Origin: Puniceicoccales bacterium
Lineage (GTDB): Bacteria; Verrucomicrobiota; Verrucomicrobiia; Opitutales; JAIRLG01
Direction: 5' to 3'
DNA: 32,000 bases
NCBI GenBank assembly: GCA_031288595.1
Contig: JAITRB010000011.1
Coordinates: forward strand, 29,799-61,798
Part shown: positions 6,130 to 29,793 of the stretch, piece after piece
Layout: the number at the start of each line of letters is the position of its first letter
Numbering within the stretch: the stretch's first letter is position 1
The notes under the pieces: generated by a model
What the model was told of the DNA's origin: nothing
Seen by the model: only the letters and a program-made list of their open reading frames with translations
Database searches by the model: none
Made by a program: the position numbers and the translations under genes

Positions 6130-6222
6130 CGCTGCCTTTGGAGCCCTCCGGGCTCCTGCCCGCTCCGCGGGCAGCCGCAGCGGAAGAAAAGGGCCCTTTT
6201 CTTCCGCTGCTCAAAGGCAGCG
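6130..6222 (-). repeat. Four-way-junction palindromic element, copy G (order short-short-long on + strand)
   Basis: Closing stem cgctgcctttg (6130-6140) pairs with caaaggcagcg (6212-6222). Inside are gagccc-tcc-gggctc (6141-6155), ctgcccgc-tcc-gcgggcag (6156-6174) and a perfect 34-nt palindrome gcagcggaagaaaaggg/cccttttcttccgctgc (6177-6210). It lies in the trmH-like/dprA spacer. Confidence 0.85.
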
Positions 6223-6317
6223 CGAACAACAGATTTTCCCAAGTTTCTCTTAACAAAGCTCCCTTTCCTCTACCTTTCCCGGCATGTGGGGGAAGCGGTG
6301 CAAAGTCCCAATGGCCA

Positions 6318-7463
6318 TCAGGCCAGGCACTCGTAGTGCCCCGAGGGAGATTGGGTGACGACCTGCTGGAGCTCCAGCATTTGCAGGCTGGAGATGATCT
6401 GCTGGGGCTGGTGTTCCAGTTTTTGGAGGATTCCATCAAGGCTGAGCCTGTCATGCTGGCCGATGAGCTCGTAGAGCGCCCTTTCCAGCTCGGTCTTCAG
6501 CATAGCGCCCATGTCCGACCTGTGCGGCTTCGCCGGTGGAATCGCTTCGGCCGCTTGCCTATTGGAAGAGTCCGCCTGGAGAAAGGGAAGCTCCTCGAAA
6601 ATATCCTCCACCCTGGAGAGCAGCGTGGCCCCTTCTCGTATGAGCGCCAGACAGCCCTGGCTCGTGGGCTGGTCAATGCGCCCCGGAACGGCAAAAACCT
6701 GCCGCCCTTGCTCGGCCGCCAGGCGGGCGGTGATCATGCTCCCGCCATGGCAGGTCGTCTCGATGACGATGATGGCCTGGGACAGCCCAGAGATGATCCG
6801 GTTTCGAATCGGGAAGTGATGCTTCTCCGCCGGATAGGCGAGCGGAAATTCGGACAGGACGCAGCTCCCGGGCGCCTGGATGATTTTCTGGTAAAGCGCC
6901 CGATGAATCCGGGGATAGATGACATCTACCCCCGTTCCCAAAACCGCCACCGTGCGTCCACCGACCGCCAAAGCACCCTCGTGAGCCGCTGCATCGATGC
7001 CCTGGGCCAGACCACTGACGATGCTGTAGTCCCTCTGGGCCAGATCACGGGCCAGTTGATGGGCGATCTTCAGCCCGTAGGGCGTGGCCTGCCGACTGCC
7101 CACGATGGCGATACATCGGGAATGGGCTTCCGGGGAACCTCTGCAGTAGAGTCCAATCGGCGGGTCGTAAATTTCCCGAAGCAGCGGTGGGTAGAGCACA
7201 TCATCGGACGGCAGGAAAGAAATGCCCTGGGCCTGCATTTTTTCCCATTCCTCCTGAAGGGAGAAATAGCGAGCGGGGTGCGAGATGACCTCTCGTGCCT
7301 CTTGGGATAGACCCGGAACCTTCCGCAGCTCCTCATCACTGGCTTCCAAGATGCGCGAGGGGTCGTGGTCGAAATGGGCCCAGAGTTTCCGGTAGCTCAC
7401 GGGGCCGATTTTCGGCAGTGCATTGAGTAGCAGGCAGGCCTGAACTCCGGATAGTCCTTTCAT
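6318..7463 (-). CDS. dprA: DNA-processing protein DprA (Smf)
   Basis: 381 aa with an ATG start. The DprA Rossmann-like core is present: IVSGLAQGIDAAAHEGAL...AVLGTGVDVIYP...FPIRNRIISGLS...VIETTCHGGSMITARLAAEQGRQVFAVPG. Confidence 0.9.
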   Translation of the reverse strand: MKGLSGVQACLLLNALPKIGPVSYRKLWAHFDHDPSRILEASDEELRKVPGLSQEAREVISHPARYFSLQEEWEKMQAQGISFLPSDDVLYPPLLREIYDPPIGLYCRGSPEAHSRCIAIVGSRQATPYGLKIAHQLARDLAQRDYSIVSGLAQGIDAAAHEGALAVGGRTVAVLGTGVDVIYPRIHRALYQKIIQAPGSCVLSEFPLAYPAEKHHFPIRNRIISGLSQAIIVIETTCHGGSMITARLAAEQGRQVFAVPGRIDQPTSQGCLALIREGATLLSRVEDIFEELPFLQADSSNRQAAEAIPPAKPHRSDMGAMLKTELERALYELIGQHDRLSLDGILQKLEHQPQQIISSLQMLELQQVVTQSPSGHYECLA

Positions 7464-7614
7464 GGATCCGTGGGTCTGTCACAGTTTCTTCCACCTGTCC
7501 AGACTAAAAACACGTGGTCCGCAGGCTATGGGGATTCGTTCTCCGATTTTGCTTCGTCGAGGGGAAGAAGGCTGTCGCCCATGGGACGATGGGGCTTATC
7601 CCATCGGGTCTCGC

Positions 7615-7705
7615 GCTGTCTTTGCAAGGATGAAAATAAAAATCCTTTTTATTTTCATCCTTGAGGCCCGCTCCGCGGGCGCTCCCGAAGGGAGCCAAAG
7701 ACAGC
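7615..7705 (+). repeat. Four-way-junction palindromic element, copy A (long-short-short)
   Basis: Closing stem gctgtctttg (7615-7624) pairs with caaagacagc (7696-7705). Inside are a perfect 18-bp AT-rich hairpin caaggatgaaaataaaaa-tcc-tttttattttcatccttg (7625-7663), gcccgc-tcc-gcgggc (7666-7680) and gctccc-gaa-gggagc (7681-7695). Confidence 0.9.
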
Positions 7706-7764
7706 CGGCAAAACAAAGCGGGGATATTCGAGAAGCGCCCCTCACTCGGACTATCACCTCCCAA

Positions 7765-8673
7765 CTAGGCCGTCAGAAAGACCTGAATCTTTTCCAGAAT
7801 CTCGGGGTTGGCATCTTCCAGAACCCAGTGACCTGCCTGGGGAAAACAGAGCGTCTGGGCATCGGGGAAGAACTCCTGCCACTTCTTCAAAAAAGCTCCA
7901 GTGAAACAGAAGTCCTTCATCCCCCAGGCGAGTAGAACCGGCTTCCCCCGTAGGATCGGAACCTGCTCCTCGATGGTCTGCAGCGTTTTCCAGCTCCGGT
8001 GGCGCCGCTTGAGAGGGATGTCCTTGACGAAGGCGTTGATGGCGATGCGATGGGCCCAGGAATCATAGGGGAAGAGATAGCCTCGGCGCACTTCTTCCGG
8101 CAGTTCCTTTCGAACGCAGAGGGAGGTGGCGGCCCAGGCGAACCCATTTAGGCCCCTCACGAGCAGGGTTCCCGGGAAACGGGTTTTGGCTAGGGCGATC
8201 GGCCAGGGGATGTTTTTCGACACAAAGGCCGCTCCATTCAGGATGACCAGACTCTGGACGCGCTCGGCGTAGAGCTCGGCGATGGCCAGTCCAATGGGGC
8301 AACCCCAATCGTGTAGGATGAGGTGAAAGGCCCTTGCCTGTACCTTTTCCACCAGGGCCGAGGCATTGGCGATATGGTTGTCCAGGGAATAGTGGTAATG
8401 CTTCGGCTTATCCGAAAGGCCACAACCGAGATGGTCAAGGGCGACGCAGCGAAACTGCTCGCGCAGCTGGGAAATCAGGTGGCGGTAATGGAAGGACCAG
8501 GTCGGATTGCCGTGGAATAGGAAGATGCATTCCCCATGACCTTCGTCGACGTAGGATAGGCGATGGCCCTCAGCCGTTCGCAGGACCTGCCGCTCAAAGG
8601 GATACTGAACCCTCAGCCATGTCGGTAAGTCCTCTTCCACTGGCCAGAGGAAAGACAAAACGCCTCTGGCCAC
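7765..8673 (-). CDS. Alpha/beta-fold hydrolase, haloalkane-dehalogenase-like
   Basis: 302 aa with a GTG start. Motifs FLFHGNPTWSFHYRH, LDHLGCGLSDKP, nucleophile elbow ILHDWGCPIG and a C-terminal GHWVLED (His of the triad). Confidence 0.8.
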   Translation of the reverse strand: MARGVLSFLWPVEEDLPTWLRVQYPFERQVLRTAEGHRLSYVDEGHGECIFLFHGNPTWSFHYRHLISQLREQFRCVALDHLGCGLSDKPKHYHYSLDNHIANASALVEKVQARAFHLILHDWGCPIGLAIAELYAERVQSLVILNGAAFVSKNIPWPIALAKTRFPGTLLVRGLNGFAWAATSLCVRKELPEEVRRGYLFPYDSWAHRIAINAFVKDIPLKRRHRSWKTLQTIEEQVPILRGKPVLLAWGMKDFCFTGAFLKKWQEFFPDAQTLCFPQAGHWVLEDANPEILEKIQVFLTA

Positions 8674-8826
8674 AAGAACAGATTCTTCGGAGAAAGAGCA
8701 TCGCTTCTCTGCTTACCGCTGCAGGCTCTGATCCCTAGATAGCATTCCCTTTACTGCTAGCTCCATCTCCTGGAGCCTGTCCATCTTCCGTGTTTTCATC
8801 TGGGCGAAAAACCTTCTTATCGCCGG

Positions 8827-9939
8827 ATGTTCTCCATTGCCGACCGCCATGTCCTGGGCAGGTGGTGGCGCTATTTCCTGCTCTGCCTGGCCCTCACCCT
8901 CGGCATTCTGCTGCTGGAGAACCTGTACAACCATCTCCATGAACTGCTCCGCCAAGGCATCTCCCTGACGAAGATCGCCTGCTATTACTTCTTGTTCTGT
9001 CCTCAACTCTTCCCCCTCGTCGTCCCCGTTGCCTTTTTTCTGTCCCTCCTACTCGCCTTAGGCGAACTGGATCGGCATGGCGAGATCATCGCCTTTCAGG
9101 CAGCTGGCATACCCCGGATCTCCCTCACCCGTTCGCTGGCTGCTGTTGGCCTTCTGCTCTCGCTCCTGCTCAGCTATTTTCAGGATGAGCCCGCAGTGCG
9201 GGCACGAAAACTTTTAGGGGACTACCAGGCCCAGATGGGAGTTTTCTCGGCTGCCCTAGCGGGAAGCATCCTCCATCATGTCGGCTGGAATGATGAGCCA
9301 CAGGGTCGGCTCTGGTATATGAGGAGCCTCGAGCCTTCAAAGGGCATCGCCACGGCGGTCCATCTCCACGAGAGGGATGCCGGGGGGCATGAGTGGAGGC
9401 GCATCTCCGCTGCCCAGGCCACCTTCGATCTCTCCACAAGACGCTGGATATTTTCCCAGGGACGCCTCACCATCTTCGATCTCCAGAGCCATTATCCCCA
9501 GTCCAGTATCCTCTTCGAGCGCTATGAGCTCGAGGACCTCCGCTGTTCCCCGTCGCTTTTGGCCCTCCATCACAAAAAGCCCGGAGAGCTGACATTCCAC
9601 GAGCTGCGGACACTGGTCCGGCAGGAGCGGGATGGAGCGGGCATTTTTTCGGAAAGCAGGCGGAGAGCCCAGTACCTCTTTTACTGGAACCGCCTCCTTG
9701 AGCCCTGGGCCTGCCTCCTGATCTTCTTCATCACCCTACCCTGTGCCACCGGTGGTCACCGCAGCGATGCCATGGCCAGCTTTGGCAGGGCGACGGGCCT
9801 TCTCTTCGCCTTCTATCTCCTCTCCCATGTCTGCCGTGCCCTTGGCCTCCATGGAACCCTCGGTGCCCCATTGGCAGCCCTGGGCCCCTATCTACTCCTG
9901 ATCCTCTGCGCCCTCCCCAGTTACCGCTCCCCATCTTAG
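8827..9939 (+). CDS. LptF/LptG-family (YjgP/YjgQ) LPS export permease
   Basis: 370 aa with an ATG start. The N-terminus (ADRHVLGRWWRYFLLCLALTLGILLL...) is typical of the family. Three TM segments are followed by a periplasmic domain and then three more TM segments. Confidence 0.8.
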   Translation: MFSIADRHVLGRWWRYFLLCLALTLGILLLENLYNHLHELLRQGISLTKIACYYFLFCPQLFPLVVPVAFFLSLLLALGELDRHGEIIAFQAAGIPRISLTRSLAAVGLLLSLLLSYFQDEPAVRARKLLGDYQAQMGVFSAALAGSILHHVGWNDEPQGRLWYMRSLEPSKGIATAVHLHERDAGGHEWRRISAAQATFDLSTRRWIFSQGRLTIFDLQSHYPQSSILFERYELEDLRCSPSLLALHHKKPGELTFHELRTLVRQERDGAGIFSESRRRAQYLFYWNRLLEPWACLLIFFITLPCATGGHRSDAMASFGRATGLLFAFYLLSHVCRALGLHGTLGAPLAALGPYLLLILCALPSYRSPS

Positions 9940-10073
9940 GGCTGTATGACTTTATTCGTATCGACAAAACGGCCAATGTCGCTAAAAACTAAGCCCCATT
10001 GCCGATTCATATGAAGAGCGGACAACACTCACCCTCCCTCTTGAGTCCACCAGGTCGTGGGGAGCGGGTCTGG

Positions 10074-10163
10074 GCTGTCTTTGCAGGTAGGGAATGGCCT
10101 TTTAGGCCATTCCCTACCTGGGGCTCGCAGAGCGAGCCGAGCCCTATGGGCTCCAAAGACAGC
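10074..10163 (+). repeat. Four-way-junction palindromic element, copy B (long-short-short); homology with copy C extends to about 10061-10177
   Basis: Closing stem gctgtctttg (10074-10083) pairs with caaagacagc (10154-10163). Inside are caggtagggaatggcct-ttt-aggccattccctacctg (10084-10120), ggctcgc-aga-gcgagcc (10122-10138) and gagccc-tat-gggctc (10139-10153). Confidence 0.9.
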
Positions 10164-10199
10164 GCAGCGGAAGTAGGAGGAAATTTCCAATCTTCGGCC

Positions 10200-12782: not shown

Positions 12783-12810
12783 TCCCGGGTGCTGGATGCC
12801 TGCCTCCGCT

Positions 12811-12905
12811 GTGCTGTCTTTGGAGCCCATAGGGCTCGGCTCGCTTTGCGAGCCCCAGGCAGGGCATGGCCTTCACAGCCCATGCCCTGCCTGCAAAGAC
12901 AGCAC
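12811..12905 (-). repeat. Four-way-junction palindromic element, copy C (short-short-long), an inverted near-copy of B; homology extends to about 12799-12917
   Basis: Closing stem gtgctgtctttg (12811-12822) pairs with caaagacagcac (12894-12905). Inside are gagccc-ata-gggctc (12823-12837), ggctcgc-ttt-gcgagcc (12838-12854) and a long arm caggcagggcatgg...ccatgccctgcctg (12856-12893). Confidence 0.9.
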
Positions 12906-12970
12906 AGCACCCGCTCCTGCCTCTTAGATCTAAGAAAATCACTCCCGAACGCTGCGGGGAATTCCGGTCT

Positions 12971-13735
12971 TCACTCGGCCGAGGGGAGAAGCAGGCGTTG
13001 ACCGACGCGAACTTGGTTGGGTTGCGACAGCTGATCCCGATTGATCTCGAAAATCGCCGGCCAGCGGCTCGCATCGCCCAAGACCTTTTGGCTGATGATC
13101 GACAGTGTATCGCCCTCCTGCACGAGATAGGTCTTCTCGCGCGCCAGGGCGCGTTCCTCCAGTCCTTGCTCCAGCCGCCCCCTCGCCCCTCTCGCAATAG
13201 ATGCTTCGGGGCCTGGCTCCAAGTGCCGCTCCAGATCGACCACCCGCTGCTTCAGCTGGGCATTTTCCTTCCGCAGCTCCCGCAGTAGAAGCGGAAAATC
13301 ATTGGCGTATTTTTTGTAGAGGGAACTTTGATAGCACTGTTTCATGAACAGCTTTTGGAGTGAATCGATCCATTGAGGCACCCATTCGCGCTCCTTGGCC
13401 TCCTCCGCTGCGCAGATCAGGAATTGACGGAAGTGGTAGATAGCGAAAATCGGGTCCTCCAGCGTCTCCCAGTAAATTTTCCCGCAGAAGAGGTGTGACT
13501 GCGGCGTTGGATGATGTTGGCGGATGAGCGCCGAGAACTTTTCCAAAGCCTCGGTCGCCCGACCTTCCCGAAGCAATTGCTGGCCCCGGCGGTAGAGGCC
13601 ATCTTCTTCCTCCGACCACTCCTCCGCCGTCGGCTGGCAGGCCGTCAGGAAACAGAACACGAGCAGCAGCGCCGGAAGCCAAGTGCTCCGCCTCGGCGGA
13701 AGGGAGGAGAAAATACCTGTGCTGGAAATCCGCAT
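12971..13735 (-). CDS. Lipoprotein with helical/TPR-like region, coiled coil and C-terminal LysM domain
   Basis: 254 aa with an ATG start. It has a signal peptide with lipobox (LLLVFCFLTAC) and a C-terminal LysM signature: YLVQEGDTLSIISQKVLGDASRWPAIFEINRDQLSQPNQVRVGQRLLLP. Confidence 0.8.
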   Translation of the reverse strand: MRISSTGIFSSLPPRRSTWLPALLLVFCFLTACQPTAEEWSEEEDGLYRRGQQLLREGRATEALEKFSALIRQHHPTPQSHLFCGKIYWETLEDPIFAIYHFRQFLICAAEEAKEREWVPQWIDSLQKLFMKQCYQSSLYKKYANDFPLLLRELRKENAQLKQRVVDLERHLEPGPEASIARGARGRLEQGLEERALAREKTYLVQEGDTLSIISQKVLGDASRWPAIFEINRDQLSQPNQVRVGQRLLLPSAE

Positions 13736-14055
13736 GGCAGGAGTTTTTCGACTGAAAAAATTGAAACTGCCTCACTCTCTTTGGCCAGAAAATAACACAG
13801 AGCTCATCGGCGGCGACTTGCCGACTCTCCCTCACTGCCATCCGGTTTTGCCATTTGCGATGATTTTTGCCGTTTGTGATGATTCACAGAACGGAGCGGA
13901 GAAGACGCACTTGCCAAAAGCACGGAGGAGCTCTATAAAACCCGTTCCGGAAATTCGGCAGGTCCAAGGCGATGAGATGCAAGATTTCAGCTTTTTTTGT
14001 TGACAGGACTCACAGACTAGCTCTCGGCAGAGTCTCTGCGTAATCGAAATCGCCC

Positions 14056-15933: not shown

Positions 15934-15956
15934 GATAGGCCCTAGGAATCCGCCAT

Positions 15957-17729: not shown

Positions 17730-17755
17730 GCATCGAGCTATTCCTCCTCTTCTTC

Positions 17756-17846
17756 GCGCCATGGCCTGTCTGCCCCGCTAGCGGGGCAGACCCGCTGCGT
17801 CCCCGTAAGGGGACGCAGCCTTTGCTCCGCAAAGAGGCCATGGCGC
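17756..17846. repeat. Four-way-junction palindromic element, copy E (variant closing stem; medium-medium-short arms)
   Basis: Closing stem gcgccatggcct (17756-17767) pairs with aggccatggcgc (17835-17846). Inside are gtctgccccgc-ta-gcggggcagac (17768-17791), gctgcgtcccc-gtaa-ggggacgcagc (17794-17819) and ctttgc-tcc-gcaaag (17820-17834). It lies between the convergent rpoD and RluA-family genes. Confidence 0.85.
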
Positions 17847-17871
17847 ACGGGAACAGACAAAAACACATCCC

Positions 17872-18630: not shown

Positions 18631-18761
18631 GCTCTTGGCTTAAAAAAACATTTTCCCCAAAAATTTTTCAAGTCTTATCCACCAGTCTTCGGCCTCCGCT
18701 GGTCTTTTCCCCTTGCCAAGCATAACTCCCATTGCAGCATGCAAAGGGCCTCCCGAGCATC

Positions 18762-18837
<76 letters not shown>

Positions 18838-18996
18838 GGACTTCTCTCCCCACCGAGAATCCTTTCTCGTCGAAGGAGTGGCGGGGCGAAATGCGATGCA
18901 GGAGTGGTCATTCCCTCCGGTTTAGGGGCTCTTTTGCCTCTACTATCCTTAGGCCCTTGGCTTGAATTTCTGGACCTTCTCCCTAAAAATATCCCC

Positions 18997-19986: not shown

Positions 19987-20047
19987 AGGCCGCACTTTCC
20001 TTCTACTTGCCCCGTAGAAATTTTTCTACAAAATGTCTTCTCTTCAC

Positions 20048-20124
20048 TGGTCGGGCTGAAGAGATTCGAACTCTTGACCCCTTGCACCCCATGCAAGTGC
20101 GCTACCAGACTGCGCCACAGCCCG
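20048..20124 (-). tRNA. tRNA-Pro (anticodon GGG)
   Basis: The reverse complement folds as a 77-nt cloverleaf. Acceptor cgggctg/cagcccg, D arm gcgc-agtctggta-gcgc, anticodon arm cttgc-atggggt-gcaag and T arm aagag-ttcgaat-ctctt. ACCA is encoded. Confidence 0.92.
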
Positions 20125-20158
20125 CCAAGGCCAGGATCCTGGACCTAGCAGGAAAAAG

Positions 20159-21697: not shown

Positions 21698-21839
21698 GAG
21701 CTTGAGTATCTCTCAAGCTATGGAGCTGTGAGCAGCTCGTCGATATCGAATAGGTATTCTCCGAAACAATCTCTGCATTCATTTCGATCCTGGGCTTGCC
21801 CCTTCCATCGACGGGCTGGGCCATCATGCTGGTAGTGTG

Positions 21840-21932
21840 CGTGCTGTCTTTGCAGCGATGAAGCGAAATGCTTTCGCTTCATCGCTGTGGCCTGCATAGC
21901 AGGCGATCCCGAAGGGATCCAAAGACAGCACG
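21840..21932 (+). repeat. Four-way-junction palindromic element, copy D (long-short-short)
   Basis: Closing stem cgtgctgtctttg (21840-21852) pairs with caaagacagcacg (21920-21932). Inside are cagcgatgaagcgaaa-tgc-tttcgcttcatcgctg (21853-21887), gcctgc-ata-gcaggc (21890-21904) and gatccc-gaa-gggatc (21905-21919). It lies in the divergent murJ/rplY spacer. Confidence 0.9.
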
Positions 21933-22053
21933 GCAATAGGAAGCATGGGCCCGATATTCGCAGTTGAGGAGAGGACCGAAAGCGGAGCAGGGCCCTGCTC
22001 TTTCGAGATCTAGGGATTCTGGCGTTGCCTCTGCAAAAAAGATTTCCATTGTT

Positions 22054-22083
22054 TTGTGCGAAGATTCGGGTCAGATAGATAAT
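22054..22083 (+). promoter_or_regulatory. Candidate sigma-70 promoter for the rplY-pth-rpsF-ssb-rplI cluster
   Basis: TTGTGC (22054-22059), an 18-nt spacer, then GATAAT (22078-22083), about 38 nt upstream of the rplY ATG. This is a motif match only. Confidence 0.3.
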
Positions 22084-22120
22084 CGCTGCTCGATGGAATA
22101 TATAGCAGGGCTTAGTTTTT

Positions 22121-22750
22121 ATGAAATCATTCAATCTATCGGTGGTCTCGCGGGAGACAAAGGGGCGCCACGCCGTCAATCGCCTTCGCGCCCAGGGCAT
22201 CATTCCGGCGGTGATCTACGGACGTTCGGGCACCCGTTCTCTGAGCGTGAAGGATAAGGATTTCCGCGCGCTGCTGAAGGCGAAAGGTAGCGGAGCAGTG
22301 ATCGTGGAGGTGGAGGACGAAAGGAGGGAAAAGACGCTGGCGACCATCGCTCAGATCCAGAAGGACGCCATCTCCGATGGGATGATGCACGTCGATTTCA
22401 AGGAGATTTCTCAGGATGAGCCGGAGTTTTTTGCAATTCCGGTCGCTGTCCGTGGCGAGGCCGTGGGCGTGAAGTCGGAGGACGGAGTCTTGGAAATTCT
22501 AAAACATGAGATTTCCATCCGCTGCCTGCTGCGCGATGTCGTCGATGCCATCGAGGTCGATATTTCCAACCTGCACGCCGGCGAAAGGATTCACGTGAAG
22601 AATCTGCCCGTTCTGCCGGGCATCACCTATCTAGGGGATCCGGAGGTGGTGGTCCTGAGCTGCTCGAAGCAGAGCGAAGAAGAGGCGGCGGGGACGAAGG
22701 GAGCGGCGGCGGCAGCCGAAGCGGCAGTGTCGGCGACCAGCGCGGGATGA
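22121..22750 (+). CDS. rplY: 50S ribosomal protein L25 / general stress protein Ctc (long form)
   Basis: 209 aa with an ATG start. RETKGRHAVNRLRAQGIIPAVIYG... is the typical L25/Ctc N-terminus, and the C-terminal tail is Ala/Glu-rich. Confidence 0.9.
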   Translation: MKSFNLSVVSRETKGRHAVNRLRAQGIIPAVIYGRSGTRSLSVKDKDFRALLKAKGSGAVIVEVEDERREKTLATIAQIQKDAISDGMMHVDFKEISQDEPEFFAIPVAVRGEAVGVKSEDGVLEILKHEISIRCLLRDVVDAIEVDISNLHAGERIHVKNLPVLPGITYLGDPEVVVLSCSKQSEEEAAGTKGAAAAAEAAVSATSAG

Positions 22751-22757
22751 GCCCTGC

Positions 22758-23333
22758 ATGGTACGAGACGTCGTCGTCGGCCTGGGCAACAGGGGTTCGG
22801 CGTATCGCCACACGCGGCACAATCTGGGGGCCTATTTCGTCGAATACTGCGTCAATCCCTCACTTCCCGAAAGCCTCCTGTGGCAGCAGGTGGATGAGGG
22901 CCTGGGTTGCTGCTGGACGCGGACGGAGTGTGGTGCTCAGAGCACTTATTTCCTCCGTCCGATGAGCTTCATGAACGAGTCAGGCATTGGGCTGCGGCGC
23001 TGGCTGTCGTTTTTCAAGAAAAGCGCCGAGGAGCTCATCCTCTGCTGCGACGACATCACGCTTCCCCTGGGAGCGCTGAAGATCAGCCTCCGGCCGGGCA
23101 CAGCTGGGCATCACGGCGTGGAGAGCGTATGGGGACAGGTCGGGCCTGGTTTCGTGCGCTTCCGCCTGGGTATCGGGCCCAAGCGCCATCCGGAGATGGA
23201 CCTTAAGGATCACGTCCTGGGGCATTTTTCCGAGGAAGAGCAGGCCTGTGTGGATGCCCATTTGCTCTTGTGGCGGCAGGAACTAGAGCTCCTGCTTGAC
23301 AAGGGAAGGAATCCTCCCATGAAAATCTCCTGA
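22758..23333 (+). CDS. pth: Peptidyl-tRNA hydrolase
   Basis: 191 aa with an ATG start. Motifs VVGLGNRGSAYRHTRHNLG, FMNESG and GHHGVES are present. Confidence 0.92.
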   Translation: MVRDVVVGLGNRGSAYRHTRHNLGAYFVEYCVNPSLPESLLWQQVDEGLGCCWTRTECGAQSTYFLRPMSFMNESGIGLRRWLSFFKKSAEELILCCDDITLPLGALKISLRPGTAGHHGVESVWGQVGPGFVRFRLGIGPKRHPEMDLKDHVLGHFSEEEQACVDAHLLLWRQELELLLDKGRNPPMKIS

Positions 23334-23349
23334 ATTCCCGAAGCGGAGT

Positions 23350-23640
23350 ATGAGAAAGCATTCTTACCGAGCGAACTTTATTCTGGATACGCGGCGCGAG
23401 ACGGAGCCGCTGGAAAGCCTGATCGAGAAGATACGTCGGACACTGGCGGAGCTGGGTGCTTCCATTGCCCAGGTCAATAACGAGGGGCAGAAAAATTTTG
23501 AACGGGCGGTGAATCGCCACTTCGCTGCTGGTCTCTATCTGGAGATCATTTTTGAAGGCATGTCCTCCCTACCGGCAGCGATCCGGTCGAAGTTCCAGCT
23601 CGATAAGACAGTCGATCGCATATTGATCGAGCGCTGCTGA
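23350..23640 (+). CDS. rpsF: 30S ribosomal protein S6
   Basis: 96 aa with an ATG start. The size, the position upstream of ssb and rplI, and an S6-like beta-alpha pattern (YRANFILD...GLYLEIIFEG) support the call. Confidence 0.75.
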   Translation: MRKHSYRANFILDTRRETEPLESLIEKIRRTLAELGASIAQVNNEGQKNFERAVNRHFAAGLYLEIIFEGMSSLPAAIRSKFQLDKTVDRILIERC

Positions 23641-23663
23641 AGGATTTGGAGCGAAAAATTGCT

Positions 23664-24149
23664 ATGGCTTCCTTCAATCGAGTAATCCTGATGGGGAACA
23701 TGACCCGGGATCCGGAGCTGCGCACGACGGAGGCTGGGATGGCGATCACCAAGTTCGGATTGGCGATGAGCCGCAGTTTCAAGTCCCAGAACGGCGAGAG
23801 CCACGAGGAGACGACTTTTGTGGATGTCGATTCCTTTGGCCGGCAGGCGGAGGTGATCGCGAAGTTCTTCTCCAAGGGCAAACCGATCTTGGTGGAGGGA
23901 CGTCTGCGCCTCGACCAGTGGGAATCTCCCAGTGGGGAAAGGCGGAACCGCCTGGTCGTGGTGCTGGAAAATTTCCAATTCGTCGGTACGCGGGGTGAAG
24001 AAGCGGCGGTGCAGGAAAATGCTCCGCTAGAGGCGAGAGCCTCTTCTTCCTTCAACCCTCTATCGGCTGCCAGGGAAAAACTGGGCGGCGATCGGGAGCT
24101 CAAGGTACCAGCCCCTTCTCAGGACTTGGATGATGATATTCCGTTTTAA
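23664..24149 (+). CDS. ssb: Single-stranded DNA-binding protein
   Basis: Start moved to ATG 23664 (MASFNRVILMGNMTRDPELR...). An OB-fold core (FVDVDSFGRQAEVIAKFFSKGKPILVEGRLRLDQWE) and the acidic C-terminal tip DDDIPF are present. Confidence 0.93.
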   Translation: MASFNRVILMGNMTRDPELRTTEAGMAITKFGLAMSRSFKSQNGESHEETTFVDVDSFGRQAEVIAKFFSKGKPILVEGRLRLDQWESPSGERRNRLVVVLENFQFVGTRGEEAAVQENAPLEARASSSFNPLSAAREKLGGDRELKVPAPSQDLDDDIPF

Positions 24150-24168
24150 TTTCAAAAACTAGAAAACC

Positions 24169-24639
24169 ATGGCTACGTCGGAAATTTTGCTCTTGGAAAA
24201 GGTCGAAGGCCTGGGGGCTGAAGGGGCCCAAGTGAGCGTACGGGCAGGCTATGCCCGCAACTTCCTATTTCCGAAGAAAAAGGCAATTCCGGTCACCCGA
24301 GCCAATCGCCGCCAGATCGAGGCCCTGGCGAAGCGCCGAGAAATGCGCGAGAATGCAGAACTGGCCACTGCGAAGGACTTGAGGGAACGCATCCTGGCCC
24401 TATCGATCGTCTTTTCGGTAAAGACGGGCATCAAGGGCAAGCTGTTCGGTGCGGTGACTCAGGCAGATCTGCTGGAACGCCTGCGGGAGGCCGGTTTGGA
24501 AATCGATCGCAAGAAGCTCCATCTGGAAGCGGTGAAGGAACTGGGGCAGCATCGAGCTGAGCTGCAGCTCCATCCCGAGGTCGTGTTCGAGCTTCCCTTT
24601 GAGATCGTCTCCGAGAATCCCATCGATCACGGCGAATAG
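24169..24639 (+). CDS. rplI: 50S ribosomal protein L9
   Basis: 156 aa with an ATG start. ILLEKVEGLGAEGAQVSVRAGYARNFLFPKKKA is the canonical L9 N-terminal domain. Confidence 0.93.
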   Translation: MATSEILLLEKVEGLGAEGAQVSVRAGYARNFLFPKKKAIPVTRANRRQIEALAKRREMRENAELATAKDLRERILALSIVFSVKTGIKGKLFGAVTQADLLERLREAGLEIDRKKLHLEAVKELGQHRAELQLHPEVVFELPFEIVSENPIDHGE

Positions 24640-24705
24640 GAACCTCGGCTTCTCTCTCTTTGGGGAACTCCGAGGGAGTTGTGGAGAAATGGACGTTTTT
24701 GTGTA

Positions 24706-24802
24706 GGGGCTGGCTCTACCCCGATGAGGAGGGCTATGCCCTCACCTCATCGGGGCGGCCCGCACAGCGGGCCCGATTCCGGAGGAATCGAAAGCCAGCC
24801 CC
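24706..24802 (+). repeat. Four-way-junction palindromic element, copy F (variant closing stem; long-short-short)
   Basis: Closing stem ggggctggct (24706-24715) pairs with agccagcccc (24793-24802). Inside are ccccgatgaggagggc-tat-gccctc(ac)ctcatcgggg (24719-24755, 2-nt bulge), ggcccgc-aca-gcgggcc (24757-24773) and cgattcc-gga-ggaatcg (24774-24790). It lies between the convergent rplI and dehydrogenase genes. Confidence 0.85.
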
Positions 24803-24830
24803 ATTCCCAGCCCTTCTTCGCTCCTTGGGC

Positions 24831-25871
24831 TCATGAAATGGCATTGACGAGGACCTTGCCCTCTTCGTAGCAGCGGATGTTCTCCAGAGTTGTCGAGGCG
24901 ATGCGCTCCAGGGCTTCTTGGGTGAAAAAGGCCTGATGGGACGTGAGGATCACATTATTAAAGGAAATCAGGCGTGCCAGCGTGTCATCGGCGAGAGGTT
25001 CATTGGAGAGATCTTGAAAGAAATAATCATTTTCATTCTCGTAGACATCCAGACCGGCAGCACCGATAGGGCCCCTCTTGAGGCCTTCGATGAGCGCCTC
25101 GGCGTCGATGAGCCCGCCGCGGCTTGTGTTGATGAGGATCACCCCGGTCTTCATCTGCGCGATGCTCTCTCGATGGATCATGTGCCGATTTTCCGGTGTC
25201 AATGGGCAGTGAAGGGAAATAATGTCGGCTTCCCGGTAGATCTCATACGGAGAGCGATAGTGGGTATTGACGAGCTTTTCGACTTCCGGATTCGGGTAGG
25301 GATCCGAAACGAGGATCTTTCCCTGAAATCCCTGGAGCAGCTGGCAGAAGATATGACCAATTTTCCCAGTCCCAATCACGCCAAAGGTCTTGCCGTGCAG
25401 GTCCATCCCCATCAGTCCCTCGAGGGAAAAATTATGCTCCCGTGTCCTCATCCAGGCCCGATGGATCCTGCGGTTAAGGGCCATGAGAAGGCTCAGGGCA
25501 TGTTCCGCCACAGCGTGGGGCGAATAGGCCGGCACGCGCACCAGGGTTATTTTCCCCCGGGCATACTCGAGATCGATGTTGTTGAAGCCCGCACAGCGCA
25601 TGGCGAGAAGCTCGACGCCACGGTCGACCAGGCCCTGCAGGGTTCTAGGGCCCAAATCGTCGTTCACGAAAGCGCAGACGACATTGGCCTCTCCCAGGAG
25701 TTCGAGGTTTTTTTCCGATAGCCGCTGGGGATGGTAGCTCATCCTGTAGCCGAAATCCCGATTTTTGAGGTCGAAAAAAGTCCGGTCGTAATCCTTGGTT
25801 CCGAAAAACGCGATTCCCCGAATGGAATGAATAGAATGCTGCTGCCCATTATCCATATCCCCTAGCCTCAT
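24831..25871 (-). CDS. D-isomer-specific 2-hydroxyacid dehydrogenase (D-lactate dehydrogenase-like)
   Basis: 346 aa with an ATG start (an alternative ATG lies 5 codons in). The NAD-binding motif GVIGTGKIGHIF and the catalytic region SLHCPLTPENRHM...NTSRGGLID...LTSHQAFFT are present. Confidence 0.88.
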   Translation of the reverse strand: MRLGDMDNGQQHSIHSIRGIAFFGTKDYDRTFFDLKNRDFGYRMSYHPQRLSEKNLELLGEANVVCAFVNDDLGPRTLQGLVDRGVELLAMRCAGFNNIDLEYARGKITLVRVPAYSPHAVAEHALSLLMALNRRIHRAWMRTREHNFSLEGLMGMDLHGKTFGVIGTGKIGHIFCQLLQGFQGKILVSDPYPNPEVEKLVNTHYRSPYEIYREADIISLHCPLTPENRHMIHRESIAQMKTGVILINTSRGGLIDAEALIEGLKRGPIGAAGLDVYENENDYFFQDLSNEPLADDTLARLISFNNVILTSHQAFFTQEALERIASTTLENIRCYEEGKVLVNAIS

Positions 25872-25905
25872 TGAGGCCTATAGTCTATGTCTTCGAACCT
25901 TATTT

Positions 25906-26391
25906 TCAATCCGGAAATGCTCCTTTCGATGATTTCCAGGTCTCGACGGTGATCACCGCTTGGGCAAGAAATTCTCTGGCCAGTTCATCCCGATAATCCT
26001 CTTCGTAGAGGATCCGGCAAACTTTGGCCGAGAGCAGGGATTTGACGCAGTGGGAGCAGGGGAAATGGGTGCAGTAGAGCGTAGCTCCCTCGGTCGACAG
26101 GCCAAAGCGGGCACATTGTAAAAGCGCATTCTGTTCCGCGTGAACCGCTCGGCACAGTTCACTGCGCTCACCGGAAGGAATTCTCCTCTGCTGCCGCAAG
26201 CATCCCACGTCCAGGCAGTGAGGAAGTCCGCTTGGGGCGCCGTTATAGCCGGTTGCGAGGAGGCGATGTTCCCTGACCAGCAGCGCTCCGACCTGGCGGC
26301 GCAGGCAGGTCGAGCGGCTGGCCACGAACCTCGTCAGTTTCATGAAGTAGTCATCCCAGCTCTCACGGGTATTGTCCAAAGCTGAAGTCAT
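25906..26391 (-). CDS. dCMP deaminase (ComEB-type cytidine/deoxycytidylate deaminase)
   Basis: 161 aa with an ATG start. Zinc motifs VHAEQNAL and THFPCSHCVK are present, and the N-terminus (WDDYFMKLTRFVASRSTC) is typical. Confidence 0.9.
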   Translation of the reverse strand: MTSALDNTRESWDDYFMKLTRFVASRSTCLRRQVGALLVREHRLLATGYNGAPSGLPHCLDVGCLRQQRRIPSGERSELCRAVHAEQNALLQCARFGLSTEGATLYCTHFPCSHCVKSLLSAKVCRILYEEDYRDELAREFLAQAVITVETWKSSKGAFPD

Positions 26392-26720
26392 GAATTCTGT
26401 GCCCTAAAAGTATCTCTCATGGGCTTCCCTTATTCTTGAAAATCCTCTCCGAAAGGAAATCTTTTTAAGGAGAAAAATGGCTGATGGAAGAGCGGCATCG
26501 GTTTGGGAATTGAGCAGATTTTGGGAGAAGCAGGCCGTTCCCGCCGTCGAGAAAAAGCTCCGAACAGGCATAAAAACTTGCTAAGGGAGAGGATAGTTCG
26601 CGGGACAAAATCTGTCTTACTAAACTAGGGCAGTCCAGGCTATTCCATTCTGAGATCAAGCTTGGGTTTAGGTGGGGAGGAACTCTGGGTTTGGACAAGG
26701 TCATGGACCCGTCTTCGACA

Positions 26721-27157
26721 TCAGGGAGCATTTCTGCCTATCCAGGGCGATTCTGGGAGGATAATGAGGATCTGGTAGGCTACTGCTGAAAAAAGGGAGC
26801 CTGGCATCAATGCTTTGGGGGACAAGCGGTGGATGGCTCTGCATGCAGCGATCGGGCGAGGAAATGGGGAAATCATGCACTAGTGCTGAATGCGGAAGAT
26901 GTGCTTCGATGCCATGGATGACCAGGGGAAACAGCTCTAACACCTCTGCATGAGGCGGTTAGAACTGACGATCCCAACTGCATCTATCTCCTGCTGGAGA
27001 AGGATTTCGCTGTAGTGCTTCAAATCGAGGCGAGGATTTGTCCCTCTGCATCGTGCGGTTTTGCTGCTACCTCAACCTCGATATCCGTGCCTCCCGCGGC
27101 GTACAGCTTCAAAATGAAAATAGCCAGCACGATTTTGGCCAAGCCGCGGGGACGCTG
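26721..27157 (-). pseudogene. Probable decayed Gfo/Idh/MocA-type oxidoreductase remnant (N-terminal NAD-binding domain); boundaries approximate
   Basis: Minus-strand reading gives ...RGLAKIVLAIFILKLYAAGGTDIEVEVAAKPHDAEGQILASI* (27157-27020). After a frameshift it gives LKHYSEILLQQEIDAVGIVSSNRLMQRC* SCFPWSSMASKHIFRIQH* CMISPF...KALMPGSLFSAVAYQILIILPESPWIGRNAP* (27023-26721). The order Y.E.L....IDAV.I...N.L, then A.KH.F, then LM.G..F...YQ......IG mirrors the family's N-terminal motifs, but with one frameshift and two in-frame stops. Recognised from memory only. Confidence 0.4.
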
Positions 27158-27633
27158 AATGTCTGTTCAGGGTATTTTTGGCTCTACTGACAAATGACAG
27201 CTTGGGTTAGAATTGGGCCGGAAGAACGTTCAGGTGTGGGAAAGTATGTTCAGGAAGATACAAACACCTGCTGGCAAAATTTGCTGCGGAAGAGGAATGT
27301 CGATGGCGACACGCTGCTCACAACCCTCACTCTGGCCTCAGCGGATACGGCAACGTCTCCGGCTGAAACTCCTGATCTCGCTATTTCTGAAACGCTAAAT
27401 CCGCTCCTCCTGCTCCAAATGGGACTAAGGGCCAGAAGAAGAAGATGAGTCTGAATTTTCATTCAGCCAGACCCTGACAGTGCTTCTCGACTGCGGAAAA
27501 TTTCCTCAGGAAAAGGATCGGTGAAAACCCTCTACAGAGCTAAGATCACTGAGATCAATTCGCATCGCTTAAGAATAGAGATAACCTCTCCCCCAGGGGA
27601 TTGAGGAGAGGGAAATTTACCGATCAATGGGAC

Positions 27634-28041
27634 TCAGAAGCCGCCGCGGTTGCGGGAGCCGCCCGAGCGATCGCCGAAGCGATGGCCATTCCCCCGATAG
27701 CGGTCATTGAATCCACCGGAACGACGGGGACCGCTCTGGTAATCCCTCTGGAATCCTCCTCCCCCTCCTTCGCGGCGAAAATCGCGGGCCGGCCGGTCTT
27801 CCCTTGGCCTAGCCTCGTTGACAGTGAGAACCATCCCGTCGAGCTCGCTACCGTTGAGGGCCTCGATGGCCCGTGTGGCCTCCTGAGCGTCCGGCATCTC
27901 CACAAAGCCGAATCCGCGAGAACGGCCGGAAATTTTATCGGTGACGACCCGAGCCTTCGCAACTATTCCATGCACCTCGAAGGCTGTGCGGAGCGAGAGC
28001 TCGCTCGTGTCATAGGAAAGATTTCCTACATAGATATCCAT
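27634..28041 (-). CDS. RRM-type RNA-binding protein with Arg/Gly-rich C-terminal tail
   Basis: Start moved to ATG 28041 (MDIYVGNLSYDTSE...). RNP2 (IYVGNL) and RNP1 (RGFGFVEM) are present, and the tail is ...RREGGGGGFQRDYQSGPRRSGGFNDRYRGNG...SRNRGGF. The 73 codons further upstream in the track ORF look non-coding. Confidence 0.9.
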   Translation of the reverse strand: MDIYVGNLSYDTSELSLRTAFEVHGIVAKARVVTDKISGRSRGFGFVEMPDAQEATRAIEALNGSELDGMVLTVNEARPREDRPARDFRREGGGGGFQRDYQSGPRRSGGFNDRYRGNGHRFGDRSGGSRNRGGF

Positions 28042-28231
28042 AATGTCTCTCAGTGATACTCTTCTCGCCAAGTTGGGAAATCGATAAGGGGCCTCGGCGA
28101 ACAAAGACACTTCTCGACGGCTCACCGGGAACCGGCACGCCTTAGCTGAGAGACAAACGAGAAAGAAGGAATTGCAAGCTCTTAAAAGCTTCTTTAGATA
28201 AAACGCCTTTCGGCACTTTTGCGAAGAATTG

Positions 28232-28705
28232 ATGGAAATGGATCTGAAGACGGAGGTCAATGAGCTATTGGGCCGGCTGAGCCATTCCCTGCATCTGAAG
28301 CGCTTGGCCCTGGACGAAGAGGATCACTGTATCCTCCTCTTCGATGACAAAGTTATTTTGAACATGGAGTTGGATGGCGAACGTTCCCAGCTCATCGTCT
28401 ATGCCTATCTGGGCATGGTGCCGATCGAGCACAAGGAACGGATCTATGAATGGCTGCTACAGGCGAATTACTTCTGGCACGAGACCCAGGGCTCGACCCT
28501 GGCCCTCGACCGTCAGACCCAAACTCTGGTCATCCTCCGTGCCTTCACCCTGCCGCTCCGGCATCCGGAAAATTTCGAGGATGAACTGGGAGTTTTTGTG
28601 GAATCGGCCGAGCATTGGATCCAGCAATTGGAGGATTGCCTGGCTCGGGCCGAAGAAGCCGCTCGCTACGACCGCGAACATGGACCCAGTAGGGAAGAAG
28701 TTTAA
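28232..28705 (+). CDS. Type III secretion chaperone, CesT/SycE-like (class I)
   Basis: About 157 aa, acidic. The pattern LGRLSHSLHLKRLALDEEDHCILLFDDKVILNMELDGERSQLIVYAYLG...YEWLLQANYFWHETQGSTLALDRQTQTLVILRAF...FEDELGVFVESAEHWIQQL matches the alpha-beta-beta-beta-alpha-beta-beta-alpha layout and conserved positions of CesT-family chaperones such as chlamydial Slc1/Scc-type, as I remember them. The track start at 28229 is TTG; the first ATG is at 28232. Confidence 0.7.
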   Translation: MEMDLKTEVNELLGRLSHSLHLKRLALDEEDHCILLFDDKVILNMELDGERSQLIVYAYLGMVPIEHKERIYEWLLQANYFWHETQGSTLALDRQTQTLVILRAFTLPLRHPENFEDELGVFVESAEHWIQQLEDCLARAEEAARYDREHGPSREEV

Positions 28706-28717
28706 GAGGCAGTCAAT

Positions 28718-28987
28718 ATGGATGGGCCCAGCATTTCATCCCTGAGAAATCCCATGATCGGGACCATTCGATCTCCAGCTGCCGGGGTGACTTCATCTGC
28801 GCTGGCGAAGCGCTCAGTGATCCAGGCTTCCTCCGGTGGCGGCCAGGTGACGACACTGCGCCAGGTGCGCCAATCCGCAACGGCGGCATTCGCCGGCCGC
28901 CCTTCTCCCTTGGGGGGACATCGGGCTAAGTTGTTATCGGCAAGAGAAGTTCCCGCCATGCTGGAACGGCTCTTCGGCCGGAACTAA
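28718..28987 (+). CDS. Hypothetical small Ser/Ala/Gly/Arg-rich protein immediately downstream of the T3S chaperone (coding status uncertain)
   Basis: 89 aa. The ATG lies 12 nt after the chaperone stop, with agagg 7 nt upstream. There is no TM segment and the composition looks disordered. An overlapping minus-strand ORF (28702-28959) is an equally unrecognisable alternative. Confidence 0.3.
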   Translation: MDGPSISSLRNPMIGTIRSPAAGVTSSALAKRSVIQASSGGGQVTTLRQVRQSATAAFAGRPSPLGGHRAKLLSAREVPAMLERLFGRN

Positions 28988-29063
28988 AACCCCTCCTGAG
29001 CGCAGGCGATTTTCCTCAAATTTCGGATTTCCCCAAGTTGCCAAGCCCGAGTGCAGGGGAAAC

Positions 29064-29453
29064 TCAGTTTCCCGTCTGCCGCTCTTCCTGCGACAGTGGC
29101 TGCAGCCACTCCACAAAGGACTGAAATTCCCTATGGATCCATTCCCATTGAGCCGGAATATCCCGACGTGCCACCCAGAGCAGGTCGATTCCGGAGGGCA
29201 GTTCGTGCTGATGCTGGCGAAAGGCCTCCCGCATGAGGCGCTTCAATCGATGCCGAAAACAGGACGGTCCTATCTTCTTGCCCACCACCATGGCGATGCG
29301 GGCAAGCGGAGGGGCCTGATCCTCCCGTGCTAAAAAGCCGTACTTCAGGAATGAGTGAATGCCATCTACCCGCGCGCGCGTTCCCCTCAGGGAAGCGAAG
29401 TCTTCTGCCCGATGCAGGCGTTGTTGTCGACAGAATTTCAGTGAGAGAGCCAA
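29064..29453 (-). CDS. rnpA: Ribonuclease P protein component
   Basis: 129 aa with a TTG start 5 nt after the rpmH stop. RLHRAEDFASLRG...MVVGKKIGPSCFRHRLKRLMREAFR contains the RNR-like basic motif. rpmH-rnpA synteny supports the call. Confidence 0.88.
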   Translation of the reverse strand: MALSLKFCRQQRLHRAEDFASLRGTRARVDGIHSFLKYGFLAREDQAPPLARIAMVVGKKIGPSCFRHRLKRLMREAFRQHQHELPSGIDLLWVARRDIPAQWEWIHREFQSFVEWLQPLSQEERQTGN

Positions 29454-29457
29454 GGGC

Positions 29458-29610
29458 TCAAGCCTTGACCCGTGTCGGAACCGCGAGCAAGCGGCGGCCC
29501 TTCCGGCGCCGATTGGCCAACACTTTCCGCCCAGAGGCCGTTGCCAGGCGTGCGCGAAAGCCGAAATTTCTGGCCCGTCGGATTTTGGAAGGATGATAGG
29601 TGGGCTTCAT
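29458..29610 (-). CDS. rpmH: 50S ribosomal protein L34
   Basis: Start moved to ATG 29610. [44 protein letters not shown]... is a canonical L34 sequence. Confidence 0.95.
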
Positions 29611-29693
29611 GGGATTCGAATATGTAGGGAGCTGAAGCAAAGAGGCTCTTCCTCCCTGTCAAGTCCGGAGCATGAGCTACCTGTATCCTTCCG

Positions 29694-29793
29694 CGCGCGA
29701 CGGCCCTTTTTCAAAGAAAAAGGGACATTCCTCCGGAATGTCCTCGTCTGTTTTGCGGCGCACCGCGCCGCAAAACAGACGGGCCTTCGCGCG
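29694..29793 (-). repeat. Four-way-junction palindromic element, copy H (variant closing stem; short-short-long)
   Basis: Closing stem cgcgcgacggcc (29694-29705) pairs with ggccttcgcgcg (29782-29793), with one mismatch. Inside are ctttttc-aaa-gaaaaag (29706-29722), ggacattcc-tcc-ggaatgtcc (29723-29743) and cgtctgttttgcggcgc-acc-gcgccgcaaaacagacg (29745-29781). It lies between hldC-like and rpmH. Confidence 0.85.

Follow-up and report, generated by a model that had tools for sequence, protein, structure and literature searches.

What are the eight near-perfect palindromic elements that stand between the genes of a 32,000-nt stretch of a Puniceicoccales genome (assembly GCA_031288595.1, contig JAITRB010000011.1, positions 29,799–61,798; hereafter the window, numbered from its first letter)? 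An initial annotation, made from the letters alone, had described each copy (A to H) as a 90–100-nt element with a closing stem and three abutting hairpins. The reading that we favour, with moderate confidence, is a lineage-specific palindromic mobile DNA repeat resembling the repetitive extragenic palindromes (REPs, REPINs) or the miniature transposable elements with inverted repeats (MITEs) of other bacteria, with a folded form that would be a hairpin-capped four-way junction. It fits best because copies are present or absent between relatives, one is inserted within another, near-identical subfamilies occur, orientation is unbiased, pairing is almost exclusively Watson–Crick, and loops are found in flip and flop forms.

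The eight stretches were folded as the initial annotation had delimited them, and the minimum free energy (MFE) under RNA parameters was compared with that of 200 shuffles each. The proposed architecture was borne out in 8/8 copies, with 0–3 nt unpaired at the junction and MFEs of −56 to −77 kcal/mol (z −7.9 to −12.2; 0/200 shuffles as stable). DNA parameters gave identical structures for all eight, and the opposite strand, folded for A and D only, formed the same structure equally well; over both parameter sets and strands z ran from −8 to −14. When the window was scanned for such structures (closing stem of at least 7 bp, span 70–125 nt, three branches and no more, up to 8 junction bases left unpaired, and 75% or more of the bases in pairs), exactly the eight copies were returned; the scan gave 75 matches in 221 kb of DNA from related genomes and five weak ones in 548 kb of unrelated DNA. 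Together the eight copies make up ~2.4% of the window. As the annotation had stated, they occupy 8/18 of the spacers of at least 100 nt, interrupt no coding sequence and occur in both orientations. Since D and E are found unchanged in an independent Logan assembly (run SRR14710895), which also has F with 2 differences and, at a contig end, C, the copies are not artefacts of assembly.

To find relatives, species-representative genomes were scanned for the closing-stem pair. Matches overall were about as many as chance gives for 20 specified bases, with a strong excess in three metagenome-assembled genomes (MAGs) of Puniceicoccales (Verrucomicrobiota), JAITKE01, JAITIW01 and JAIRRP01; between the window and JAITKE01, identity is ~87% in coding DNA and 75% at 4-fold degenerate sites. 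A consensus and a covariance model (R1) were built from 66 aligned copies, with the long arm placed first: ext-GCYGNCTTTG-C[P2, variable, 14-20 bp]G-(G/T)G-GCCCGC-NNN-GCGGGC-(C)-GAKYCC-NNN-GGRMTC-(C/G)AAAGNCRGC-ext'. The closing stem thus consists of inverted ~10-mers (GCYGNCTTTG ... CAAAGNCRGC) extended by 3–8 variable but complementary bases. It encloses one long variable palindrome of 14–20 bp (P2) and two constant 6–7-bp mini-palindromes with 3-nt centres, P3 (GCCCGC-NNN-GCGGGC) and P4 (GAKYCC-NNN-GGRMTC). A constant core of 44 nt, with the order of the arms fixed, is kept across all four genomes.

With this model, 96 distinct copies of what we call family 1 were found in 256 kb (the window plus loci of the three MAGs). 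None was found in 548 kb of unrelated loci that carry closing-stem words by chance, nor in 958 kb of distant Verrucomicrobia, a negative control made of metagenome DnaG relatives (24–37% identity, one short 50% fragment) among which no orthologous spacers were returned. Related DNA contains the P3 seed 64 times, and 1.5 Mb of other loci contain it once; blind folding of the 235-nt regions around these seeds, which was used for seed counts only, gave the exact junction in 30/64, neighbouring repeats competing for pairing. The family matches no Rfam model: in gathering mode only two tRNAs pass in the window, and in E-value mode three element-rich loci gave sub-threshold hairpin noise only. No match to the P3–P4-core pattern was found in IMG/VR viral contigs, and no match to copy D in plasmids and phages by blastn. 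The family appears to be undescribed, and it is restricted to a few uncultured Puniceicoccales genomes.

Within the window, six copies score 75–91 bits with the model, H 25 and E 21, and with filters off no copy beyond the eight was found (Table 1). The annotation had considered the closing stems of E, F and H unrelated to the rest. Only E and H are in fact divergent in sequence; F is a full family member (82 bits) with the closing stem GCTGGCT(C/T)T...GAAAGCCAGC. Copy C, placed by the annotation at 12811–12905, has better limits at 12808–12908 with a 15-bp closing stem, and the closing stem described for H is really 7 + 5 bp with a bulge, its architecture being otherwise as proposed.

Table 1 Copies of the palindromic element in the window, in order of position.
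Copy	Position	Strand	Assignment	Fold z	Covariance model score
G	6130..6222	-	family 1	−8.2	75.4 bits
A	7615..7705	+	family 1	−9.8	84.8 bits
B	10074..10163	+	family 1; upstream of prc	−10.7	84.8 bits
C	12808..12908	-	family 1; structure scan		88.5 bits
E	17756..17846	.	minor family	−10.0	21 bits, E 0.009
D	21840..21932	+	family 1	−12.2	90.6 bits
F	24706..24802	+	family 1, GCTGGC subfamily	−7.9	82.1 bits
H	29694..29793	-	singleton	−11.5	25 bits, E 0.001

Pairing in the alignment of 66 copies covaries strongly. Standard pairs fill 95.1% of cells versus 75.2% in column shuffles (0/500 reach the observed value), a percentage inflated by the choice of some copies for their fold, which does not inflate the occurrence of multiple pair types; with partners shifted out of register, 38–55% are paired. 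Both-sided changes were seen in 31/36 pairs, and one closing-stem pair is found as T-A, G-C and C-G. The compensatory changes noticed by the annotation are real (in G, T-A to C-G; in D, gcccgc to gcctgc), and general. They also occur at single loci: relative to its JAITKE01 ortholog (locus L084, 2684–2779), copy F shows a P4 change from GATTCC/GGAATC to GATTTC/GAAATC plus several P2 pair changes, and an orthologous copy differs between two other MAGs in its closing-stem extension (TCC/GGA to TTC/GAA). Pairing has thus been kept at individual loci over time. The predicted stems hold 3947 Watson–Crick and 51 G-T pairs (1.3%), and one-sided changes of the G-U type are absent from the closing stem and P3, save in one column, where the alignment of one subfamily is shifted.

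The pattern of covariation stands as the annotation saw it, but it argues less strongly for a selected structure than it seems to, since quasi-palindromes corrected on a template can come to show this pattern in the absence of selection. Quasi-palindrome mutation by template switching is established in E. coli (PMC7202029), and hairpins have been shown to arise and be maintained through it, with changes that look compensatory (PMC8794818). Besides perfecting inverted repeats, template switching can turn round the segment that they enclose (PMC7202029; PMC8794818). It offers a selection-free explanation for part of the compensatory pattern seen here. A base-to-apex gradient of divergence in P2 was tested, and no clear gradient was found. 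The elements are in this respect a cautionary case for the discovery of RNA motifs: their covariation is as strong as in real structured RNA, yet G-U content, sense and antisense folding and orientation all point to a strand-symmetric palindrome at the DNA level. Covariation alone can mislead because hairpin-templated mutation may mimic selection. As a separate observation, the 5' arm of the long hairpin in family-1 copies (e.g. window 7625–7663) is purine-rich (median 73% purines, T 8%); the arm being a palindrome, this bias holds on both strands, and the two short arms are biased oppositely.

Strand symmetry bears on the most probable of the rival explanations, in which the elements act in cis as RNA modules: transcribed where genes or operons end, they would block 3' exonucleases, mark processing or terminate without a U-tract. 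We regard this as unlikely. There is evidence on its side: the RNA folds are very stable, 65/75 placed copies adjoin at least one gene 3' end, often within 20–100 nt, the elements punctuate operon-like groups such as L25-pth-S6-ssb-L9 between D and F, and orthologous copies are conserved above the neutral level. Canonical terminators with a hairpin and U-tract, moreover, are neither enriched in the window (28 versus 20.8 ± 5.0 expected) nor placed at gene ends. However, in the 59 copies for which a single upstream gene could be assigned unambiguously, the element has 27 G-T pairs when read in the sense of that gene and 32 in antisense, and the summed MFEs are −4297 and −4317, respectively. In tandem spacers 25 elements are oriented with transcription and 24 against it, and the family-1 copies as a whole are 42 on the + and 54 on the − strand. 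Divergent spacers (10/26 occupied) are filled as often as convergent ones (13/26), with tandem spacers at 42/106; all 96 copies are intergenic, and about 40% of the sampled intergenic spacers are occupied. The near lack of G-U pairs, the absence of an Rfam match and the free flipping of loops described below also stand against such a role. Finally, on either strand the flanks tend to be rich in T upstream and in A downstream, opposite to what a terminator shows; these flanks often lengthen the closing stem, and as repeats they are inverted, not direct.

A strand-specific RNA function is thus not supported, because every strand-sensitive test came out symmetric. The RNA role suggested by the annotation is weakened by this, without being refuted, and a structural RNA role indifferent to strand may still be conceived. 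T-runs before and A-runs after family-1 copies are frequent, for example at L058 6660–6790, at L044 4970–5100 and at window 24694–24705.

Symmetry extends to the tips of the arms. The centres of the short arms are nearly always 3 nt long and read R-N-A or the complement T-N-Y (GCA/TGC, GGA/TCC, GAA/TTC, AAA/TTT). In orthologous A copies all 36 long-arm stem positions are identical while the loop is TCC in one and GGA in the other, and in a subfamily common in JAIRRP01 the P2 tip reads either ATGCAAAGCGGGAGCTTTCAT or its exact reverse complement, including an asymmetric bulge. Because loops and tips occur as exact reverse complements, the sequences indicate that the hairpin tips invert as DNA. 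Short foreign sequences also seem to be accepted at the P2 tip. In some copies the apical loop of the long arm contains a motif of G-quadruplex type (GGGAGGGTGGGTGGG, or CCCACCCACCC... as its complement), which also stands beside the nested insertion (L031 355–442; L070 3553–3677; L063 ~2100–2130; L089 ~183–200).

Comparison of orthologous spacers, as the annotation had proposed, revealed one that is filled in JAITKE01 and empty in the window: upstream of a deaminase gene, JAITKE01 carries a family-1 copy (L084 793–896) where the window has 22 nt and no copy (26391–26413). In JAITKE01 (L063), the spacer orthologous to that of G contains a G-like copy. It shares its closing stem, P3 and P4 with G, but P2 is unrelated and bears an entire F-like copy nested in its apex. 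Extra copies lie beside orthologs of window genes in JAITKE01 (L100), and near-identical subfamily copies, P2 included, were found at many loci of JAIRRP01. At the single empty/filled site the T-run came together with the element.

Several points weigh against reading the elements as mobile. The single empty/filled comparison is compatible with insertion or deletion alike, and at this one site no target-site duplication was visible (no direct repeat of at least 2 nt), the junctions being blurred by 25% neutral divergence. No strain-level insertion polymorphism was seen in the one other assembly compared (Logan SRR14710895), which is collinear. Pfam scans of ten short open reading frames (ORFs) bracketed by elements gave ordinary housekeeping functions only, and no transposase or recombinase; tblastn with E. 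coli RayT gave no match in the 256 kb, a negative of little weight as this DNA covers only a small part of each genome, and in the loci examined no transposase gene lies between inverted copies. The density of copies outside the window is biased upward by the picking of MAG loci that contain an element. Conservation of individual copies is a further difficulty. Apart from its long-arm loop, A is ~97% identical to its ortholog (L063 593–689), in a spacer that is otherwise barely alignable, and D is 95% identical to its own (L084 5779–5871); these values compare with 75% at 4-fold degenerate sites, and the surrounding spacer hardly aligns. The conservation of A and D, unique long arms included, is far above the neutral level, exceeds what decaying selfish DNA would show and suggests that particular loci are under some constraint. 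The core may be conserved by gene conversion among copies, and single loci by selection; either or both could explain the pattern, and similarly long persistence has been reported for REPINs (bioRxiv 10.1101/2021.07.10.451892).

A mechanism for such a mobile repeat can be sketched. In single-stranded or supercoil-extruded DNA, either strand would fold into the hairpin-capped four-way junction. The copies would propagate as DNA and would most likely be mobilised in trans. The enzyme, which could be of the HUH/Y1 (RAYT-like) kind or junction-specific, would recognise the constant core in its folded form, made up of the inner closing stem, P3 and P4. Hairpin-templated correction through quasi-palindrome template switching, selection, or the two together might keep the arms near-perfect, and long-lived copies may be tolerated by, or mildly useful to, the host, as proposed for REPINs. 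Of the annotation's candidate roles, a non-autonomous mobile element recognised as folded DNA is the best fit; the HUH/RAYT-type or tyrosine recombinase that it also named is an inference.

A different emphasis, which we hold to be doubtful, is that the four-way junction itself is the functional unit of a new kind of DNA element, a hairpin-capped mimic of a Holliday junction that an enzyme specific for junctions or hairpins would recognise and then cut or copy; if this were true, shape, not sequence, would be propagated or selected. The arms behave as modules that invert, swap and accept insertions at their tips, and the shape is shared by several sequence-unrelated families in the same genomes (family 1, E-type, GGGGCCCCGGGAC-type and H). 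RuvC-type cleavage prefers (A/T)TT|(G/C), which the conserved TTT|G at the closing-stem branch point may fit, judging by its sequence.

That several sequence families share one architecture follows from the relatives of E and from the GGGGCCCCGGGAC-type repeats. The arms of E measure 11, 11 and 6 bp in the four-way architecture of family 1; partial relatives occur in JAITKE01 at L033 3616–3643 and L037 78–99, with a similar layout at L037 6024–6147. H has arms of 7, 9 and 17 bp in the same architecture, and blastn-short found no sequence relatives of it in related MAG loci. The second repeat family, of 75–79 nt, also has a closing stem and three short arms, in a different sequence: GGGGCCCCGGGAC-[AGCCCTC GAA GAGGGCT]-[AGCGGC CAA GCCGCT]-[GCTCGC GAA GCGAGC]-GTCCCGGGGCCCC. 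It was seen at L027 1144–1218 and 3586–3662, L037 3067–3145 and L063 ~3620–3700, with a last arm similar to P3 in copies B and C of the window.

An equally doubtful alternative is that the elements are domesticated DNA sites, at which a cruciform, junction or duplex core binds a host protein (HU/IHF-like, gyrase or junction-binding) in nucleoid organisation or supercoil buffering, as proposed for BIMEs. Strand symmetry and Watson–Crick-only pairing are in favour of such sites, and this explanation is also consistent with the roughly regular spacing (one per 1–4 genes, in all spacer types), with a constant core kept across species while P2 varies, and with individual orthologous copies well above neutral conservation. 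The R-N-A triloops closed by C-G match the d(C-GNA-G) type, a very stable DNA mini-hairpin. However, no binding protein or motif was identified, gain and loss between close relatives and nesting are not required of a structural host site, and the unrelated families of the same shape argue against a single sequence-specific one. Least probable by far is that nothing moves, the palindromes arising and being reshaped in place by replication template switching and old copies sharing their core through gene conversion: hairpins can be both formed and made perfect by such switching (PMC7202029, PMC8794818), and loop flips and wholesale P2 replacement at orthologous sites fit local remodelling, but ~100 copies with a 44-nt core in fixed arm order cannot arise independently at each site, and a spacer filled in one genome and empty in the other, a complete copy nested inside another and near-identical copies, P2 included, at many loci of one MAG all speak against it.

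If the elements are mobile DNA, as we favour, to which known class do they belong? REP-type traits were found (high copy number, extragenic position, both orientations, clustering, lineage restriction), as was a MITE-type one (terminal inverted repeats, here the inverted 10-mer core plus 3–8 complementary bases). REPs, REPINs and BIMEs are RAYT-associated repetitive extragenic palindromes of Proteobacteria, and GTAG repeats have also been reported in Opitutus terrae (PMC3733652). Like them, the present elements are short, GC-rich, intergenic and high-copy near-perfect palindromes in both orientations, often paired or clustered (close pairs, 28–150 nt apart, are frequent), restricted to one lineage and persisting at orthologous sites with no obvious target duplication. 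Unlike them, they have four helices at a junction over 90–100 nt, whereas REPs form a single 20–40-bp hairpin or a two-REP hairpin; the annotation was right that they are not a simple REP hairpin. One of their arms is hypervariable, divergent spacers are equally occupied, and there is no GTAG or CGTC tag: none is conserved in the 66-copy consensus, GTAG appearing only where the P3 loop is GTA.

Bacterial MITEs with folded transcripts (Correia/NEMIS of Neisseria, ERIC/IRU, RUP, BOX and Rickettsia RPE) have been reviewed (PMC10969869, PMC3184786). The likeness lies in a non-coding, dispersed unit of ~100 nt with terminal inverted repeats (here the closing stem), sequence subfamilies and presence/absence between relatives. 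They differ in that three perfect hairpins stand inside the present elements and one long imperfect one inside MITEs, that the outer 3–8 bp of the terminal repeat are variable yet complementary, and that no target-site duplication was seen at the one resolvable site and no parent insertion sequence is known. Because they have no REP tag or single hairpin, and none was seen of the target-site duplications of MITEs at the one checkable site, the elements are an interspersed palindromic repeat filed in neither family. If mobile, they would add to the REP/REPIN/MITE repertoire a multi-branched architecture with independently flipping arms, and extend it to the poorly studied phylum Verrucomicrobiota.

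Two more distant systems share features of shape. The inverted terminal repeats of parvoviruses such as adeno-associated virus (AAV) form a T-shaped hairpin with two internal arms, in flip and flop forms; they are genome termini with a Rep-binding element and a nicking site. A closing stem with small internal palindromes, 3-nt centres and flip/flop configurations are common to both, but the present elements are chromosomal, internal and three-armed and are not known to have a Rep-type gene; the likeness is only in shape and flip/flop. Integron attC sites, which like certain other recombination sites act as folded single strands, are imperfect palindromes of 60–140 nt. Their ends are conserved around a variable centre, and it is their shape, not their sequence, that is recognised; they carry R/L boxes (GTTRRRY) and extrahelical bases and follow promoterless cassettes in one orientation near intI. 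Size, conserved ends and variable centre are alike, but here the elements flank housekeeping genes in both orientations and lack attC boxes.

Other classes were tried and rejected. A tRNA, which the annotation had excluded, is indeed not found: ARAGORN and Rfam call only tRNA-Met and tRNA-Pro in the window and make no call on the elements, the arms of which, at 6–20 bp with 3-nt loops, do not suit a tRNA-like cloverleaf with its 7-bp acceptor stem and its anticodon and T loops of 7 nt. It had also excluded CRISPR, rightly, as there is no array, tandem or other, among copies 1.4–9 kb apart in both orientations, and an intrinsic terminator, since the 3' flanks are A-rich, not T-rich, on both strands; a terminator scan does not pick up the elements. 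An integron attC assignment was dropped over mixed orientation, housekeeping flanks (rpoD, dnaG, ribosomal protein genes) and a consensus without GTTRRRY, a DNA uptake sequence over a core 10-mer that is too variable, and a replication-oriented priming signal over mixed orientation within the window.

The elements also affect assembly and may mark rearrangements. Short-read assemblies are broken by them, several MAG and Logan contigs ending inside a copy. Relative to murJ, a 4.7-kb segment (window 21838–26487) holding element D, L25-pth-S6-ssb-L9, element F, a dehydrogenase gene and the deaminase gene is inverted in JAITKE01 (L084 596–5871); D stands exactly at one boundary, and no element was seen in the window at the other breakpoint (~26488–26580). 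Upstream of the extra JAITKE01 element, L084 600–790 holds a short array of ~25-nt ATCATGAGGGCGAATTTTAGGAGAAA-like units, of which the window has one. In JAITKE01 the last 20–25 nt of a lysS-like gene (GTCGTCAAACTAAAATGAG) recur right after a G-like element at another contig end (L100 1–30 versus L063 ~3690–3720), which may reflect a repeat-mediated rearrangement or an assembly join at repeats.

The window itself, with gene calls scored by codon usage, comes from a Gram-negative chromosome and carries housekeeping genes (dprA, lptF/G, prc, dnaG-rpoD, murJ, L25-pth-S6-ssb-L9 and others). On the + strand G reads closing stem, P4, P3 and long arm P2, and the long arm of A is AT-rich, with 18 bp. 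C lies between the convergent prc and LysM genes. The single gene prc is flanked by B and C, which are near-copies of each other in inverted orientation (92% complementary over 74 nt) and differ in their long arms by compensated changes. Three B-like copies in JAITKE01 (L022 133–230, L031 3353–3450, L089 6576–6673) show compensated differences in their long arms (CAGGTAGGG, CAGGCAGGG, CAGGAAGGG). D occupies the divergent spacer between murJ and the L25 gene, and F lies between the convergent L9 and 2-hydroxyacid dehydrogenase genes; a strain variant of F (L111) differs by 2 nt. The 1.2 kb at 26392–27600 hold no convincing ORF (longest 88 aa) and no Rfam match even at E 0.1; the first 75 nt of this ORF-poor stretch (26413–26487) are 83% conserved with JAITKE01, the neighbouring spacer not. 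The LysM gene and dnaG are divergent, and in the spacer that separates them the 19-nt unit TTTTGCCATTTGCGATGAT is tandemly repeated 2.1 times (13846–13884).

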